From assembly GCA_038087875.1 (NCBI GenBank), contig CM075993.1, positions 9,054,001-9,118,000 on the forward strand: a DNA stretch of 64,000 nt, read 5' to 3'. The stretch comes from Malacoraja senta. Its lineage: Eukaryota. This document shows, piece after piece, positions 3,257 to 31,191 of the stretch (position 1 is the first letter of the stretch; every line of letters starts with the position of its first letter). The notes beneath the pieces are model-generated. The model was not told the origin of the DNA, made no database searches, and worked only from the letters and a program-made list of their open reading frames with translations. The position numbers and the translations under genes were made by a program.

Positions 3257-3385
3257 ATAACAATGAATGTATCGCTGAAACAAATATGTGTGGATCTAAA
3301 GGAGTATGCCAGAATACTCCAGGCAGCTTTCAGTGTGAATGCCAACGTGGATATTTACTGGATCAAACTGGCCATGGCTGTGAAG
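3257..3385 (+). CDS. fbn1: Fibrillin-1 exon, cbEGF domain (DNNECIAETNMCGSKGVCQNTPGSFQCECQRGYLLDQTGHGCE)
   Basis: Polypyrimidine tract + tgatAG acceptor ending at 3256, G|gtaat donor at 3386. 129 bp, phase 1-1. Six-cysteine calcium-binding EGF closely resembling human FBN1 DNNECTSDINLCGSKGICQNTPGSFTCECQRGF. Confidence 0.95.
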
Positions 3386-21800: not shown

Positions 21801-23571
21801 CATTAATAGGTAGAATAAACGCTATAAAAATGATCTTTCTACCACAGTTATTATACCTATTTCAGTCTATACCAGTATATGTACCAAAATATTTTTTTTC
21901 TAAATTAAACTCTAATATTACTAATTTTGTTTGGGACTATAAATCACATAGAATTAAAAAAGAACATTTATGTAAACCAAAAGATGTCGGGGGACTTTCA
22001 CTCCCGAATTTTCTGTATTACTATTGGGCAATACATATTAAGAATATAATTTACTGGTTGGATAGTTCAACCCAACAGACAGAATGGATAAAAATGGAGA
22101 AAGAGGATTGTTACCCTTGTAATATAGGAACGATCCTCTTCTCCCCGAAGAAAATGAACAATACAATATATAAGAAGAACCCAATTATACAAGATACAAT
22201 AAGAATATGGAAACAAATACAATTATCCTTAAAATTAAGAAACCTATCATTGTTAACACCGATAGCGAATAATCCTTTATTTAAACCATCTATGGTGGAC
22301 AAAATATATAATCTTAGGAATTAAAAGGATCGGGGACATGTATGAAATGGGAGATTTACTATCATTTCAACAATTACAATTAAAATTTAAACTGAAAAAC
22401 AATCATTATTTTAAATATTTTCAGATTTGCAATTTCTTGAAGACATATATACAGGGATATCAAAAAATAATTCCTGATTTATTGGAAGAAGTAATGAATA
22501 TTAAAGCTGATACACAAAAATTAATATCATATTTATATAATAGTATTTTAAATATAGATTTACCTGCGACTGAGGTAATTAGAGAAGAGTGGGAACGGGA
22601 ATTAATGATAAAAATTACGAAGGTTACATGGGAAAAATATTTGACATACATTCACAAATGTTCGATTAATGCAAGACATAATCTAATTCAATTTAAAATT
22701 TTACATAGATTGTATTACTCAAAAACAAGATTAAATAAATTTTACCCAAATATATCCCCCACTTGCGATACATGTTTAACCCAAGATGCAATTATAACAC
22801 ACTCTTTTGTTTCCTGTATAAAACTTCATAGATTTTGGAGTGATATTTTCGAAATATTCACAAAATTATTTAAGATAAAAATGGAACCTAATAATGAATT
22901 GATTATATTTGGGGTAATGGAAGATGGGAATAAATTGAATCCATCTCAAAAATTATTTTTTAATTATGGTTTAATAATAGCAAAAAAATTAATATTTAAA
23001 TTTTGGAAAAATACACCAATACCAACGCTCAAAATGTGGATTGCAAGTATGTTGGACACCGCACATTTTGAGGAAATGCGATTCCTCCTAATAAATAAAT
23101 TTGACCAATTCATAACGAGTTGGTCTCCATTTGTCGTCTTTTTGGAATCATATGGTGCAACACAATTGTAAAAGCTAACTCGTGATTGGGCGAGGGATGG
23201 TCAAGATTATAAATAAGATCTCCTTACTTCTTTTTTCTTTTTCTTCCTTTTTCTTCTTTTATTTTCTTTTTCCTATTTTCTATTCCTTAATTTTCTTCTT
23301 TCACTCTCTATTTTTCTTTTTCACACACTATATATCTCACATTTTTCTATTTTTCATTATCTAACTTTTTCTTTTTCTTCTTTATTATAAAAATAAGAAG
23401 CTGTACATAAAATGCATTATGAAAATATGATTGTATGCAATTGTACTTCTAATAAAATAAAAATATTAAAAAATATATATATATATTATTCTTATAACAA
23501 ATGTAAAGCACTTTGGCCAACGAGAGTTGTTTTTTAAATGTGCTATATAAATAAATGTGACTTGACTTGAC
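18830..23571 (+). mobile_element. L2-clade LINE (5'-truncated) whose 3' UTR is interrupted by an L1
   Basis: GVPQGSILGP, HCYADDTQLY, SRLDYCNSL, LQLVQNAA and DHITPILASLHWL in one open frame (ORF 18947-19906). The 3' tail resumes at 23498: tgtaaagcactttgg...gctatataaataaatgtgacttgacttgac. Confidence 0.92.
19896..23481 (+). mobile_element. L1-clade LINE, 5'-truncated within the endonuclease, frameshifted ORF2
   Basis: SRIDYFLVD and SDHSPL (EN), KTPGPDGF, LDAEKAFDQVEW, RQGCALSPLLF, LYADD (RT), CDTC...HSFVSC knuckle. T-rich 3' UTR and A-rich tail. 16-bp TSD TATATTATTCTTATAA at 19880-95 and 23482-97. Confidence 0.93.
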
Positions 23572-24521
23572 GACATATAGTAATGATAAAGAGCCTTTGC
23601 AAAGTACACTGACTGAATAGTCTAGGTTGGTTTCAGTGCATCTTTGTTAAAAGCTTTAGCAGCTTTCACATTTGTTGTTTCAGAAATACAACCTACTTCA
23701 TTGGTTGTTGTAAAGTTACTGTGCAAGATGAAAAGCAGACACTTGGCACCTTCTTTTGAAAAACATCTATTGAATTTTAAAACTTTATTTAATGTCACAC
23801 CAGTTGACTGTCATTGAAGAACTTCTACCTGGCTATTTTTTAACTGATTAAATAAATGTATTTGATTCCAAAAGCGATGGAAATTTCTGTCAGAGTGCAA
23901 CATCACATCTATTCTAGAACATATAGTATTTAGATGTTTAGAATTTGTCTTCATTACTCTTTGATCTATTAACCCAATTCTCCACAATTTAGCAAATACC
24001 TTAGACTTTTACACAATCTATTGTGAATTTGAAATGCAAACAATATAAATCTGAATCCACTTAATCTGACAGAAACATGCCATCAATCAACAGTAATGCA
24101 TTCGGAGCTGCAACAAGATGCCAATAAAGAAGACATGTGATAGGTGTTATTTAGTCAAATGGCTTATTGGAAGGGTGATTTACATCTTCTGAATGAGGTA
24201 AAATTTCAGCATTAAACGCTGATCTCCTTTTCCTTTTAGTATTTTGGAGTGTGGAAGGAAAAGTGCAATGTAATGGCACATATAGATTTTACTTCGGAGT
24301 CACGTGAGTGACTACGTGAAGAAGACCCCGTCCAGCCGCACACGCGTCATATCGATCAGACGCATAGCGTTCATGACCGTGTGTGGAGGAGCAGGAGCTC
24401 CTCCAGGCGGTGAGTAAAAAGCAAAGTTAAAGTAAAAGTCGGAAGGTAAGTGGGTTCATTTTCACTCACAGGGCGCTTTTCTTCCCGCTCAGACGTGTTG
24501 GTAGAGTCCACACAAGTTACA

Positions 24522-25900
24522 ATGGAAAAAGGGCATAGGGGAAGGAGAGGCCAGGGACGCACCGCAGGTAAAACCCCAGATTCTAAGGGTAGCGGGCGTC
24601 AGGTAGAGGAGTCAGTGGCATCGAAGCCATTAACTCCCGTTGCGGTCGAATGTGCCGTTAAACCGCCGGCGGCGGGGCGCAAGGGAAATAAGTCGGCCCA
24701 ACCTGTAGACTCGGATGAGTCAGACCCGGAGGTATACCCTCCTGAAGCAGAAAATGTTATGGCTGCAAGGGTCGCTAGCTTAGAGCTCCTGAGGGGGAAA
24801 TGATTTACAAAGAACCCCCACAGGAGGATTTAGGTTGGTGTTGGCCAAAGGAGGATATAGCACAGGGTGTGCCTTGGATGGGACAGGCACAAGGGTGGCC
24901 TACAGGAGAGCCATCAGAAATGCCCGTGCAAAGCTATTACAGTGGTAAATGCCTGCAAAAAGGCAATATATGTGCTGGCCTACAGGAGAGCCAGTACCAG
25001 AAATGTCTGAGCAAAGACAGTACAAATGTACATATGTGCCAGCACCGACAATTTCAAAAGAAAAAATTATGAAGCGTTGGCCTAGAGTTGAGCCAGCGCC
25101 AGCAGCACCTGAAACAGGGCTGCCTATCCGTGGGCCTACAAGAGAGCCCGCGCAGGGGGAATCTGGCAGAGACTTACCTGAAACAGGGGAGCCAGAAATT
25201 ACCCAACATAAAGATGAATATCTAGATTCAGATGATGATTTATATGAGGACCAGAGCCCATTATCAGAGCTAAAATGTTCCAAGGCTGGCACAAAAGTTT
25301 GCTGTTCCCAGAGTAACAGGGGAACCTTTGAGAGAGGAAATAGCTATGACTATAAATTATCTACTCTCCCATCAGCCCCAGGAATTAACTATGGATGAGA
25401 CTATCAAGAAGTATGAGACCCCGGAAAATTGTGAATTGCTAGCAGTTCCAGCAGTGAATAACTGGATATGGGTTATTTGAGCAGTGGTTTACGCTCACAA
25501 GAATTGAAATTACAACGAGTGCTGAAAATTGCTGGGGTCAGGCATTATGGCATTGCCAGTGGTATTGGATGAAGATTTTATATCGGATTCACAACAAAAT
25601 ACCTTAGCACTCTTGTGTAGTGCGCACTTTGAAATAAATTGTATTCATAAAAACACAATAAGACCAAATATTCATCCTAAGTATGCAGGCTCTGCAAACT
25701 ATCCAATATACAAATGCCTAAATCTGCTTTTTGGAGAAAATCTAGCAAAGAAGCTAAAGGATCACCTATGCTGAGCAGAGCGAAGGCAGTATCCCTAAAG
25801 GCGAAATGCTGGTGCTGGAGAAGGAACAAGCCTATCATTCTCGTATACACGTTGACGTGCTGCACCGAGGATACGTGGAGGTTACAATGTGCCTACTAGA
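24522..25900 (+). pseudogene. DIRS gag-like ORF, disrupted
   Basis: Frameshifted low-complexity ORFs (24450-24803, 24800-25072, 24949-25398) followed by a KYETPENCELLAVPAVN...W segment of the kind seen in DIRS ORF1; positioned upstream of RT. Confidence 0.6.
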
Positions 25901-25974
25901 AGGGGACAACAATTGCCGGTGGCAAACCCCGAGGTAGGGGGGCTTGTTCTGGTAAGAAACACAACAAATGTTTC

Positions 25975-27420
25975 ACACCCACAAATAGGGGGAAGGTTAC
26001 GATTCTTCCTAAAAGAATGGCAATCAATAACAAATGATTCGTTTATTCTATGTAGCATTGTATGATTCAAAATTGAGTTCTCTCCACGTTTGGATCCTCC
26101 AAATCAGCATAATTCAAACTGGTCACGGAATTTCTCAAAGGAAGAGAATAAGTTGATCAAGGGAGAATTGAAAATGTTATGCGGAAAAGGGGTAATAGAA
26201 AGGTCAGTAGAACAACACCATCAGTTTGTGTCAAATATTTTTCCCAGAACAAAAAAGGATGGTGGATGTAGAATCCTTTCGGATCTGACAAATCTTAACT
26301 TTTATGTACAATAGAAACATTCCAAAATGGAAACATTTACTAAATGCCATTCAGCTGGTCACAAAGAATTGCTACATGGCAAGCACAGATCCGCAAAATG
26401 CATATTATTCTGTGGCAATGCATGGTAATGATCAAAGATATTTGAAATTTAGATGGATGTCAGTTATGGCAATTTAAAGCATTGCCCAATGGCCTGACTT
26501 CAGCACCATGATTATTCACTAAATTACTCAAACCAATTTTAGCTCTGCTAAGAGCTGAGGGCCATGTATTAGTGGTTTATTTAGAGGATATTCTGATTGT
26601 GCGGGACACTTTGGCTACTGCAAAATTGTCAGTATCTAGAGTCAAATACATTTTGAAAATGTATTTTTTTTATCAAAATTGTTACCAAGCAAGAATTATT
26701 GATTAGCCAGGGTTCACAATTAACTGAACGCATGGTAATCACCTTGCCAAAAGAGAAGGCTGCAGTTAATTGAAGATTGCACTAAACTCATAAACGAGGA
26801 CAAGCCTTCAATTAGAGAAGTGGCAAGCTTGCTGGCCAAATTAATTGCTGAGTTTCTAGCTGTCATGTTTGGACCATTGCATTATCAATGTTTACAGAGG
26901 GCTAAGGTACAAGCATTAAAAATGAATACAGGGCATTTTGACAGGCCCATGAAATTAACAATTGGATCCATTACAGAAATAGAATGGTGGATTAACAATG
27001 TCTCTAATGCTTCCAGAAAAGTTCTGGTAGAAACTCCTTCCGTCATTCTACAGACTGATGTAAGTGCTCTTGGATGGGCGCAACTAACATGATTTCCAGC
27101 TGTGGAGGTAGGTGGAATGTCGATGAAGTACCTTTGCTTGAAAATTAAGGAATAAATTACCTAGAGCTGTTAGGAGCATTTCATGGCCTTAAAGCTTATT
27201 GCACTAATATGGGAAATGTGCATGTTCAGGTACAGGTTGACAATACTACAGCTGTAGCATACATAAATCACATGGGTGGTATCAAATCAGAATCATGTGA
27301 TAGATTGGCAAATGAAATTTGGGACTGATGTATTGCCAGGAAAATTTGGCTGTCAGCAATATATTTACCAGGAAAATTTAACATAATTGTAGACAAAAGA
27401 TCACATAAAATTAATGATAA
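25975..27420 (+). pseudogene. DIRS reverse transcriptase / RNase H pseudogene
   Basis: IGGRLRFFLKEW, FVSNIFPRTKKDGGCRILSDL, LPNGLTSAP, YLED at 26578-89 (YLDD mutated), TDVSALGW, INYLELLGA, VQVDNTTAVAYINHMGG. Stops at 26312, 26509, 27146 and 27326 plus frameshifts. Confidence 0.9.
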
Positions 27421-27830
27421 TACAGAATAGATGTTAAATCAGGAAATATTTACACAAATTGTAACACAATTTGGAATGCCAGAGATTGATTGATTGCATC
27501 AAGACTAAACCACCAATTGCCTAAGTATGTGTCATGCGAACCTGATCCTGGTGCAGTAGCGGTGGATGTTTTCTCGCTACATTGGGGTGGTATGTTTCTG
27601 TATGCATTTCCACCATTTTGTTTAATCAACAGATGCATACAGAAAATTAAACAAGACTCAGCCTCAGGGATTTTGGTAGTACCAGATTGGCCTACATAGC
27701 TATGGTACCCACTGGTGTTAAAAATGATCAAAAAAAACCTTATGATTATTCCAAAGCAGATAAAACTGCTTGTACACCCTGCAACTGATGAACCACATCC
27801 TTTACATGATCGTATTGGTTTGTTGATTTG
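27421..27830 (+). pseudogene. DIRS DNA N6-adenine methyltransferase-like domain, disrupted
   Basis: PEID/xASRLN (DLFAS-like motif, frameshifted) and YAFPPF at 27601-27618 (NPPF/DPPY-like). Stops at 27428 and 27697. Confidence 0.8.
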
Positions 27831-28823
27831 CAGATTCTAAGAAGGCCATATCTTGGAAAAGGATTATCAGATCGTATGGTGGATGTTATGACAGCAGCCT
27901 GGAGGAATAGTACCCAGAAGCAGTACATTTCCTATATAAAGAAATGGGAGGTGTTTTGTTCAGGAAAGAATATTGCATATAACACAGCAGAAATTTCAGA
28001 TGTAATAGAGTTTCTTTCAACTCTATACTACGAATTAAAATTAAGTTTTAGTGCAATCAATACTTCACGAAGTGCACTCTCTGCATATTTAAGCAGTGAA
28101 TCAGAACAAAATCCAATAGGATCACATCCTTGGGTCTGTAGGTTTATGAAAAGAATTTTCAACTCCAATCCTCCTAGACCTAGGTATACAGAAATCTGGA
28201 ATGTAAAAGATGTACTGATGCTGCTGAGGGATTGGAATCCTATTGAAACTCTGTCATTAGCCAATATCACCATGAAATTGGTTATGCTCATGGCATTAGT
28301 TTCAGCTCAGAGAGTTCAAACATTACAGAAACTAACAATTGACAGAATGAAAATAGGGGCGAATGCCGTTACATTCTATGTCTATGATTTACTGAAGCAA
28401 AGTAGACCTGGGTTCACGGGATGTAAGTTGGAGTTGTCAGCATATCCTACAGATCCACGGCTATGTGTAGTAACATATGTAAAATGTTACATAGAAACAA
28501 CAAGAATCTTAAGAGGCACACAATTGGCATTTTTTATTAGTCATAAAAAGCCTCATAAGAAAGGGTCAACACAGACAATTTCAAGATGGTTGAAACAGGT
28601 GTTGATTTATTCAGGTATTGATACTGATAAATTTAGATCTCATTCCCCCAGGGCGGCATCAACATCGGCGGCCAGGGATTCAGACGTGCCAATAGATCTT
28701 ATCCTCGCGGCCGCAGGATGGGCAAGTGAACAGATGTTTCACAAGTATTACCATAAGGAGATTAAAGATCTCGGGGTGTTTGATGATGCCGTGGTGGATT
28801 CAGTATTAAATCCCCCATTATAA
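27828..28823 (+). CDS. DIRS tyrosine recombinase (phage-integrase family), open ORF; first ATG at 27876
   Basis: 331 open codons. Catalytic set R (SAQRVQ), K (LLKQS), HxxR (HSPR), W (AAGW), Y (FHKYY). N-terminal region STQKQY...W..FC typical of the integrase core-binding domain. Confidence 0.9.
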   Translation: MQILRRPYLGKGLSDRMVDVMTAAWRNSTQKQYISYIKKWEVFCSGKNIAYNTAEISDVIEFLSTLYYELKLSFSAINTSRSALSAYLSSESEQNPIGSHPWVCRFMKRIFNSNPPRPRYTEIWNVKDVLMLLRDWNPIETLSLANITMKLVMLMALVSAQRVQTLQKLTIDRMKIGANAVTFYVYDLLKQSRPGFTGCKLELSAYPTDPRLCVVTYVKCYIETTRILRGTQLAFFISHKKPHKKGSTQTISRWLKQVLIYSGIDTDKFRSHSPRAASTSAARDSDVPIDLILAAAGWASEQMFHKYYHKEIKDLGVFDDAVVDSVLNPPL

Positions 28824-29538
28824 TAAATGGGCCTAATTTTGTTACTTTTGTTAAAATAAATAAAACCATTAACTGATTACATTTAATGTTGTGGTTATGC
28901 ATTGTTGATTGTGCTTACTCAGAGTCAATCAGTGCAGTGAGCACCTGGATTTTAATCCACGATGTGAAATCACAGAGCTTTGAAATCTTCACGTAGTCAC
29001 TCACGTGACTCCGAAGTAAAATAGTAAGATTAAACGAGAACTTACCAGTTTGAAGTTTGATCTTTATTTTATGAGGAGTAACGTTGAGGGATTACGTGCC
29101 CTCCGCTCCCACCCTCATAAAAGGATCAAGCTGGTAGTTCTAAGTCTTTATGCATCTTACTATCATACTTCAGTAATTATCGTCTGTGATTGTCACTCCG
29201 CTGCTTTGAAAGATTGACGCGTGTGCGGCTGGACGGGGTCTTCTTCACGTAATCCCTCAACGTTACTCCTCATAAAATAAAGATCAAACTTCAAACTGGT
29301 AAATTCTCGTTTAATCTTACTATGTATCATCATCTTCTCCATAAAGAAAACTTTTGACTCACCAACTCGTAACAGCTTGGTGAATCCATTGGTATTAAAT
29401 GTCGACATTGAAAAGTTCCATTTGCTCTTTCTAAAGCATAAAACAAGCTGGTATTAGAAACCGCAAAACTGAAAATCATTAAAATTCACTCTTTATATTG
29501 TTTAGTTAAATGTTTCATGATTTTAATTTGTCCAACAG

Positions 29539-29770
29539 ATGAAAATGAATGCATAAATTCTCAGGTTTGTGGAGGAGCTTCATGCCATAATACATTGGGA
29601 AGCTTCAAGTGCCTATGTCCATCAGGATTCTCCTTTGAGCAGATGTCTGGGTCTTGTCATGACGTAAACGAGTGTTCGTCTTCCAAAAATCCATGCAACT
29701 ATGGCTGCTCAAACACTGATGGTGGTTACTCATGTGGCTGCCCACCCGGATATTATAGAGTTGGCCAAGG
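29539..29770 (+). CDS. fbn1: Fibrillin-1 exon, last two cbEGF domains ([25 protein letters not shown]...GYYRVGQG)
   Basis: tccaacAG acceptor, CAA GG|gtaaga donor, 232 bp. Corresponds to ORF 29517-29774. Confidence 0.96.
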
Positions 29771-31191
29771 GTAAGAACCAGTTAGAATAATAAAATTAGT
29801 TACGTTTAATAAGCAAATAACTCTTTGACTGTCTTCACATAATTTGCAAGCCTTGCAAAATACAAGTCTAACCCAATGGTTCATAAACTATGGGTCATGA
29901 ACCAAAGTAGGCTGCAAAGATCTTTCTGCTGTGTCATGAATTTAGAGCCTTTTGCAACAATTGGCCACCATCATGTGTCGAGAAGGATTCTATCTGTATC
30001 TACTTACTATGTTTGCTGCTTGCAGCACACCCGAGGGCCATGGCCTACAAAAGCTAAGCAGCAATGCAAGGCAAAAAGAGATCCTCAGAGGTTTTTCTGC
30101 GGGATAGCTTGGAGAACTCTGCCCTAAGCAACATACCTCAGCTGGCATAGCTATCACCATACCAGGAAAGAAGGAGTAATCAAATCTGCAAGGGAAAGGA
30201 AAAGAGGAGATAGAGTGAGATATCTGGTGGGTAGGCAATGGGCAGAAGGAAAGCAGGAAGGAGATTGGATAGGGGAGGCCGAGAGCAATTGTCTTAAGGA
30301 AAAGGAGAGCTAAAATAAGGGCAAGAGCATGCTTGTGTGCCAACTGTATGCAAGTGGTCAAAGTGCATCTGCATGCAGAAACATGTACATATTTACTGCC
30401 ACCCTGATACCATCGATTACCTTATAGAATTTTATTGATCTAACGTTTGTTTTATTTCAAGTTTCCATAGTCCAACATTTCTCAATCCTCTACCCACGGA
30501 CATGCGATATTTGGTTCTTATGAATACAATGTTCTCACATACAAAATTGAATTGTAAATGTACTAACATCAGCGATTAAATCCAGAAATATGTGAAATGT
30601 CAAAAAAAAAATCAAATTAATGGTAAATCGAATTAACACTAATTAAATAATTAAAACTCCGAAAGACAACTGGTGAACATTGTAAGTTATCAGGAACAGA
30701 TTGAGAAATCATCTGTCAATTTTAGAAAATGCACTGGGTCACTGTTTTTTAGGTCCTAACATCAAAAAGTTTAGGAACCCAATGCTGCAAATAATTGCAA
30801 ATTATGCTATTATTTTACAGATGATTACTCAGCAATTAGTTGTAAAATTAGTGCTTGCCATTTGGAAGCAAATTCTTGATGTGCTTTCCTCTTTTACAAA
30901 GAAAATATGCATACATTTGGAAAATGTGAGCTTCTATATCCATAATTGCAGTTTCTATGTGATATATTTTCATCTTCACATTAAAACTGGGAAAATAAGT
31001 AAGCTCCCCTCTGGAAACACAGCTTGGTCTTCAATTTATTGATTTCAATAACAATTAAAATGGGACAGACTGCATGGCAGGCAGCCCAAATTTGTGTTGG
31101 ATTACCACCCAAGTTGAAAGACAAGAATCTAACATGCTTTTTAATTTTTGCAGCAGACTCTAAACTCATATTTTAACGTTCTTTACACTAG

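Follow-up and report, generated by a model that had tools for sequence, protein, structure and literature searches.

Can a retrotransposon lineage lose its gag and pol genes and keep its integrase under selection? This question is raised by a DIRS-like element of 5,038 bases at positions 24286–29323 of a 64-kb stretch of Malacoraja senta DNA (contig CM075993.1, positions 9,054,001 to 9,118,000), called the window in the following. An initial annotation had described a young insertion with dead gag and pol and an intact tyrosine recombinase (YR), and had proposed that its lineage is replicated by the reverse transcriptase (RT) of another element while selection preserves its own recombinase. 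Replication in trans is supported by the analysis reported here; retention of the integrase alone by a whole lineage is not. Instead, it is highly probable that the window element split off early and on its own from a non-autonomous DIRS lineage with a recombinant ancestor, in which a dead 2-kb gag/pol patch sits in an autonomous-type backbone. The proteins for its copying and integration were probably supplied in trans, and the only reason for the open YR is probably that this gene arrived fresh with the backbone and has so far escaped a stop while drifting.

Hundreds of copies of the element are present in the 1.94-Gb genome. In total, 190 loci were fetched, 21 were dropped as duplicates with the same flank, and 169 were aligned. 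The copies had been chosen by DNA similarity to the whole element, to pol or to the YR, by YR protein similarity, which is biased to open frames, or by short exact motifs. Because the alignment of the 5' gag region (24900–25560) was poor, the codon tests begin at 25790. The nearest copies are 96–97% identical to the window element.

Inherited pol lesions and the mosaic structure

Five groups of copies, A0–A3 and D, were of the autonomous type. In none of their 680 pol or 331 YR columns was a stop the commonest codon, and the ratios of nonsynonymous to synonymous change (dN/dS) for the differences between these groups, 0.09–0.31 in the YR and mostly 0–0.35 in pol, indicated purifying selection. 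Stop-free gag-pol frames of at least 1,100 codons were found in 6 of the 81 matches of a pol protein search, some of them possibly duplicates of one locus, and therefore helpers exist. The terminal 37-mer is identical in many copies. The coding-competent partner with matching termini that the initial annotation had suggested looking for is thus indicated by the long frames, the selection on the group stems and the common ends.

The six pol stops reported for the window element (26312, 26509, 27146, 27326, 27428 and 27697) were confirmed, and all lie in the pol frame of the family. Also confirmed was the change from YLDD to YLED, at 26578–26589. In total, 21 stops and frameshifts were scored in 671 pol codons, a few adjacent pairs of which represent one event or alignment slips. 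A large part of this damage is inherited. Stop 27146 was present in 78 of the 169 independent copies examined, and a 20-base motif across it occurred at 145 loci genome-wide (reversed control, 0). Three dead lineages, B, H and C, have stops 25853 and 26312 in common: they were found in 28 and 26 of 31 B copies, respectively, in 8 of 8 H copies and in 40 of 40 C copies. Of the 31 B copies, 30 had stop 27146 and 30 had YLED; the stop was also present in all eight H copies. Together with most frameshifts of the patch, stops 25853, 26312, 26704 and 27146 are common to tens of dispersed copies and absent from all 32 autonomous-type copies. The expectation that pol lesions would be common to several copies therefore held for 27146, 26312 and several frameshifts, but not for stops 26509, 27326, 27428 and 27697, which are private or occur in at most two of the copies examined. 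Because the pol damage is largely inherited, the proposal of a trans-mobilised, non-autonomous lineage that is copied by the RT of another element is supported.

Comparison of the window copy with the groups revealed that it is a mosaic. Its distance to A0 is 2.0% at 24286–25100, 7.7% at 25100–27190, 1.9% at 27190–28830, and falls to 0.4% at the 3' end. Within the divergent part it is closest to H (2.6%) and B (2.9%), and trees shift its placement by region. Derived sites common to the window copy, B and H were found in 80 of 1,801 columns at 25200–27190 versus 0 of 1,761 columns at 27190–29000 (P = 1e-24), and the right breakpoint of the patch lies between 27182 and 27263. These results showed that a dead 2-kb patch is embedded in the backbone of an autonomous-type subfamily. 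H itself resembles A2/A3 up to the 3' end, as 42 of its 62 differences from A0 are in common with A2/A3. An A0-type element thus acquired the patch, through two crossovers, from such an older dead lineage of the H type, and therefore the YR of the window copy never aged together with the dead pol. The recombinant kept working termini and a working internal complementary region (ICR) and multiplied, to the dispersed loci at which the common lesions are found, with the proteins of presumed helpers. The window copy diverged before a stop at 28017 in the YR became fixed in B, the main branch.

Mosaicism was not confined to this copy. At least eight mosaic patterns were found among the 169 copies, including E, F, L037, L088, L063/L147 and L114. 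For lineage C, the synonymous distance to D is 0.15–0.24 in pol upstream of 27560 and 0.01 in the YR. The exchange probably occurred by template switching during reverse transcription, or else by gene conversion; the genomic copies are compatible with either mechanism. Template switching has been demonstrated for long terminal repeat (LTR) families (PMC5668417, PMC6894440).

A different use of recombination has to be considered, in which dead lineages gain from capturing the 3' module (YR, ICR and right end) of the currently active subfamily, either through matching cis signals or because a fresh YR, before it decays, brings a brief advantage in cis. Two cases fit this view, B plus the window copy with a 3' module of the A0 type and C with one of the D type from about 27560, and the ends of the subfamilies differ by about 2%. 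However, H multiplied with its native 3' end, and the ancestor of the window copy has an A0 5' end as well, which makes it a patch within A0 and not a 3' capture. Furthermore, E and F bear the stop-bearing YR of B, so that exchange runs both ways and is not directed at intact YRs. We therefore regard a benefit from end capture as unlikely.

The recombinase in the window copy and in the dead lineages

The YR frame of the window copy is open for 337 codons from stop to stop, or for 331 if it is counted from the TTG at 27828. It matches Pfam PF00589 (E = 2e-8) and has homologues in 545 proteins, including skate, echinoderm and mollusc records. The residues R162, K190, H272/R275, W298 and Y308 lie in columns that are 97–100% conserved in 120 distant YRs. 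The open frame and the catalytic residues are thus as the initial annotation described them. The YR is free of lesions as far as stops and frameshifts are concerned, but not with regard to substitutions. Compared with the commonest codons of A0, the window YR has 16 nonsynonymous changes and one synonymous change; compared with the 32 autonomous-type copies, 15 codons are missense and five are silent. This ratio matches the neutral ratio of singletons (308:107, P = 1.0) and differs from that on an autonomous stem (12:29, P = 0.001). Three of the missense changes, at amino acids 74, 80 and 109 (all counted from 27828), affect columns that are 96–97% conserved, and one, at amino acid 274, lies within the HxxR motif. 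The mean conservation of the changed columns is 0.63 in the window YR versus 0.31 on the D stem.

The relatives of the window copy gave a uniform result. The YR was closed in all 67 copies that have stop 27146 together with at least 290 YR codons: stop 28017 was present in 33 copies, a common frameshift at 28088 in 32, and other lesions in two. In the first sample, each of the 26 B copies had stop 28017. Genome-wide, the stop allele occurs at at least 87 loci versus at least 473 for the open allele (same 18 bases; other alleles were not included in these counts). An open YR was sought at 40 of the 46 loci that have stop 27146 but lack the YR-stop motif, among the first 100 of the 145 loci, and none was found. 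Since these 40 copies were chosen for lacking the motif, the result of 0 of 67 holds in spite of a choice that favoured open YRs.

For lineage C, 37 independent copies were taken from the open-allele list in order of position along contig C1 (L111–L150). Thirty of these open-allele 18-mer copies belonged to this pol-dead lineage, other alleles of the 18-mer being outside the count. Of the 29 C copies with a full YR in this sample, 23 had a YR frameshift that is common to at least three copies. The idea that C is a lineage that keeps its YR was rejected on this basis, and because eight of the ten C copies with an open YR were picks of the protein search. Dead full-length elements may outnumber helpers.

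Together, these findings show that the three dead lineages B, H and C multiplied with inherited YR lesions, and we infer that a functional YR is not needed in cis. This is in agreement with the trans action of the DIRS-1 RT (PMC7192593). Private lesions in 93 dead-lineage copies that had not been picked by YR protein were as frequent in the YR (0.33 per 100 codons) as in the adjacent pol (0.30; P = 0.68). No private YR lesion was present in 37 of these 93 copies, and hence an unbroken YR is common by chance. If selection had preserved the YR after the loss of pol, a dN/dS well below 1 would be expected; the missense-to-silent ratio was 15:5 in the window copy and 39:10 for the YR variants common within dead lineages. 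The window YR thus drifts neutrally. Selection did not keep it, as shown by the lesions in all 67 relatives, the neutral ratio and the entry of the YR by recombination from another subfamily.

No sister copies of the window element were found among the 169 copies. Of the 62 rare alleles of the window element, none of these copies has more than five, and it is therefore a singleton and not a lineage. No RNA data set was listed as a holder of the sequence, which speaks neither for nor against expression of the YR.

Terminal repeats, empty site and age

The three repeat pairs on which the proposed young age had been based are real: the inverted terminal repeats match at 37 of 37 positions (24313–24349 versus 29215–29251), the left end matches the ICR at 37 of 37 (24286–24322 versus 28986–29022), and the right end matches it at 77 of 78 (29246–29323 versus 29021–29098). 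Two related organisms have an empty insertion site in their read contigs; over about 1,557 bases, their flanks show 43 and 53 substitutions relative to the window. In the organism itself, both junctions were present in both runs, one of which is possibly the source of the assembly, and no empty-site joint was found among the matches listed. Because the site is empty in the two relatives, the insertion is restricted to the species and postdates the split from them, assuming that a small indel at the empty site is unrelated. As a separate observation, the empty site in both relatives also lacks about 18 flanking bases that are present in the window (24281–29353).

The proposed youth holds only in part. 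The interior of the window copy is 1.9% from the nearest subfamily versus a mean of 1.4%, so that in this part it is no younger than its relatives, and near-identical repeats are not rare, with at most one mismatch in 9 of 49 scored copies. Over these 49 copies the repeats behave as a clock, as 176 mismatches were seen and 202 were expected. General gene conversion between repeats, and with it a general homogenisation, was therefore rejected. For the window copy, one mismatch in 147 pairs corresponds to 0.34% per site (95% interval, 0.01–1.9%).

An old autonomous insertion of the ordinary kind that decayed in place and had its repeats homogenised later would account for the roughly 2% private change and the seven or eight private pol lesions of the window copy. 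Yet it is refuted by the stops (25853, 26312, 26704 and 27146) and patch frameshifts that recur in tens of dispersed copies and in none of the 32 autonomous-type copies; together with the empty site and the clock-like repeats, they make this history extremely improbable. Hypermutation in one replication round was also considered as a source of the private change, and was rejected because there is no dominant class of G-to-A changes (7 of 31 differences in the 3' module).

Several observations weigh against a recombinant copy with a neutrally drifting YR. The window YR has no private lesion where 2.8 are expected (chance of none, P = 0.06), the adjoining 206 pol codons have four, and a test for uniform spread on 8 versus 0 yielded P = 0.04. 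Moreover, the first ten C copies all had an open YR, and two of them had not been found by the protein search that favours open frames. The repeats of the window copy show one mismatch versus 5.6 expected from the interior (P = 0.024), so that the ends look younger than the interior, and the terminal bases show one difference in about 400 (4 of 48 other copies are as clean). Part of the private change may predate the last insertion and may have accumulated in unsampled intermediates through which the open YR survived. In addition, most private bases are unconfirmed in the read contigs, for which 16 of 1,812 pieces were listed.

The lack of lesions in the YR, the younger ends and the open YRs of some early C copies, together with the inherited pol lesions and the catalytic residues, are what can be said for a pol-dead lineage that keeps its own YR by selection, with a recombinase that prefers its own cDNA or junction. 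They do not outweigh the closed YRs of all 67 relatives, the multiplication of three dead lineages with inherited YR lesions and the lack of sisters among 169 copies. Because the missense changes of the window YR are neutral in ratio and radical in position, including columns that are 96–97% conserved, the younger ends and possible base errors do not rescue selection on the YR. We thus consider preservation by selection highly improbable. It is likewise very unlikely that the mosaic or the private changes are assembly artefacts, i.e. a chimera of paralogues or base errors. In favour of this, most private bases are missing from the few read contigs listed. Against it, lineage B agrees in patch and breakpoints, read contigs of two runs cover both junctions without a difference, and the private change at 28647 is spanned by one contig of 56 bases.

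Anatomy, locus and related elements

The element is a member of the DIRS-like superfamily by its repeats, ICR, RT and YR (Table 1): it has inverted terminal repeats, an ICR that is complementary to both ends, a YR with catalytic residues, and RT, RNase H and methyltransferase upstream of the YR. The two halves of the ICR are adjacent, with a 2-base overlap. RVT_1 (E = 4e-20) and Dam (E = 0.006, below the cut-off) were matched in the relative L025, and the RNase H-like RVT_3 matched a fragment of the window copy weakly (E = 0.045). No Pfam match was obtained in the 5' part, and the putative gag is assigned from its position. In unbroken relatives, gag, RT, RNase H and methyltransferase are encoded in one frame, the end of which is overlapped by the YR frame by about 10 codons. 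The pol part of the 3' module of the window copy contains three private stops and one private frameshift.

Table 1. Features of the DIRS-like element and its surroundings (window coordinates)
Feature	Position	Strand	Remarks
Full-length DIRS-like retrotransposon copy, non-autonomous	24286..29323	+	intronic; host gene with calcium-binding EGF exons, same strand
Left terminal repeat	24286..24349	+	24286–24322 pairs with ICR; 24313–24349 pairs with right repeat
5' backbone, subfamily A0 type	24286..25100	+	2.0% from A0 commonest bases; 5–14% from other autonomous-type groups, from C and from H
Broken gag-RT-RNase H-methyltransferase frame	24522..27840 (start approximate)	+	unbroken relatives: single frame, about 1,160 codons
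Inherited dead patch common to lineages B and H	25112..27182	+	contains shared stops, frameshifts and YLED motif
3' module, subfamily A0 type	27190..29323	+	1.9% from A0 in coding part, 0.4% at end
YR frame, open	27810..28823	+	catalytic residues present; 15 missense codons versus autonomous-type copies
ICR	28986..29098	+	complement of left and right ends joined
Right terminal repeat and 3' extension	29215..29323	+	
Host exon, two calcium-binding EGF domains	29535..29771	+	about 210 bases downstream of element; fibrillin-like

The two ends of the window element agree with those of most fetched copies. The ends are uniform across copies and have a common short A/T junction word; a small indel by which the empty site in the relatives also differs obscures the exact target. 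The host gene has recognisable calcium-binding EGF exons on the + strand at window positions 3307, 5421, 29583 and 29706; between 5421 and 29583 the motif gave no further match. All four read runs show a short repeat of very high copy number (23500–23571) that stops at 23571. Sequences similar to the ICR are common to many other DIRS families in the read contigs of all four runs (window 28965–29100), with loose ends at 28965. At L051–L056, L066 and L091–L098, the same insertion with the same flank was present on many small contigs, indicating segmental duplications or uncollapsed haplotypes, and at L085, L116 and L150 copies are directly joined to the end of another copy (tandem or junction insertions).

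The same arrangement, with inverted terminal repeats, an ICR complementary to the ends, and RT, RNase H and methyltransferase followed by the YR, is described for DIRS-1 of Dictyostelium and for DIRS families of Xenopus in PMC7192593 and PMC9210276. In Xenopus, gag and pol are in separate open reading frames (ORFs; PMC9210276), whereas they are in one frame in the unbroken relatives studied here. The window copy differs from the known DIRS1 families in that its ORFs are dead and that it is a mosaic of subfamilies. A likeness to DIRS-1 is the trans action of proteins: its RT acts in trans, its other proteins likely do so, and transformed cDNA was integrated by endogenous proteins (PMC7192593).

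Non-autonomous DIRS-order elements are already known. TOC1 of Chlamydomonas is an element of this order that multiplies without proteins of its own (PMC9940879); the lineages described here, full-length pseudogenised elements with nested inherited lesions, appear to differ from it. Onsen/Copia78 and Ty1 are similar in that old defective members enter new insertions by recombination with young ones and that the resulting mosaics have terminal repeats which look younger than interior parts (PMC5668417, PMC6894440). In contrast to them, the element belongs to the YR retrotransposons, which have a different replication intermediate, and the exchange is deduced from genomic copies. No report of DIRS subfamily mosaics or of full-length dead DIRS lineages was found in a literature search that lay outside subscription journals and Repbase.

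Tentatively, and with considerable doubt, a more general picture can be drawn. RNAs from several subfamilies of DIRS elements might be packaged together or serve jointly as templates, recombination might be frequent, and the proteins, including the YR, might have little cis preference. Dead full-length lineages would then outnumber helpers and gain by taking active ends, B from A0 and C from D, as a DIRS counterpart of LTR swapping. Swapping of this kind was reportedly described for soybean by Du et al. in 2010.

Taken together, the dead lineages provide evidence from within an animal genome that the DIRS recombinase is supplied in trans, which PMC7192593 could only suggest from transformation with cDNA. 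DIRS subfamilies recombine freely. The identity of DIRS repeats dates the last insertion only, and 152 paired bases give a wide interval, as seen for the window copy. An intact gene that adjoins a dead gene in a single copy can be a product of recombination.

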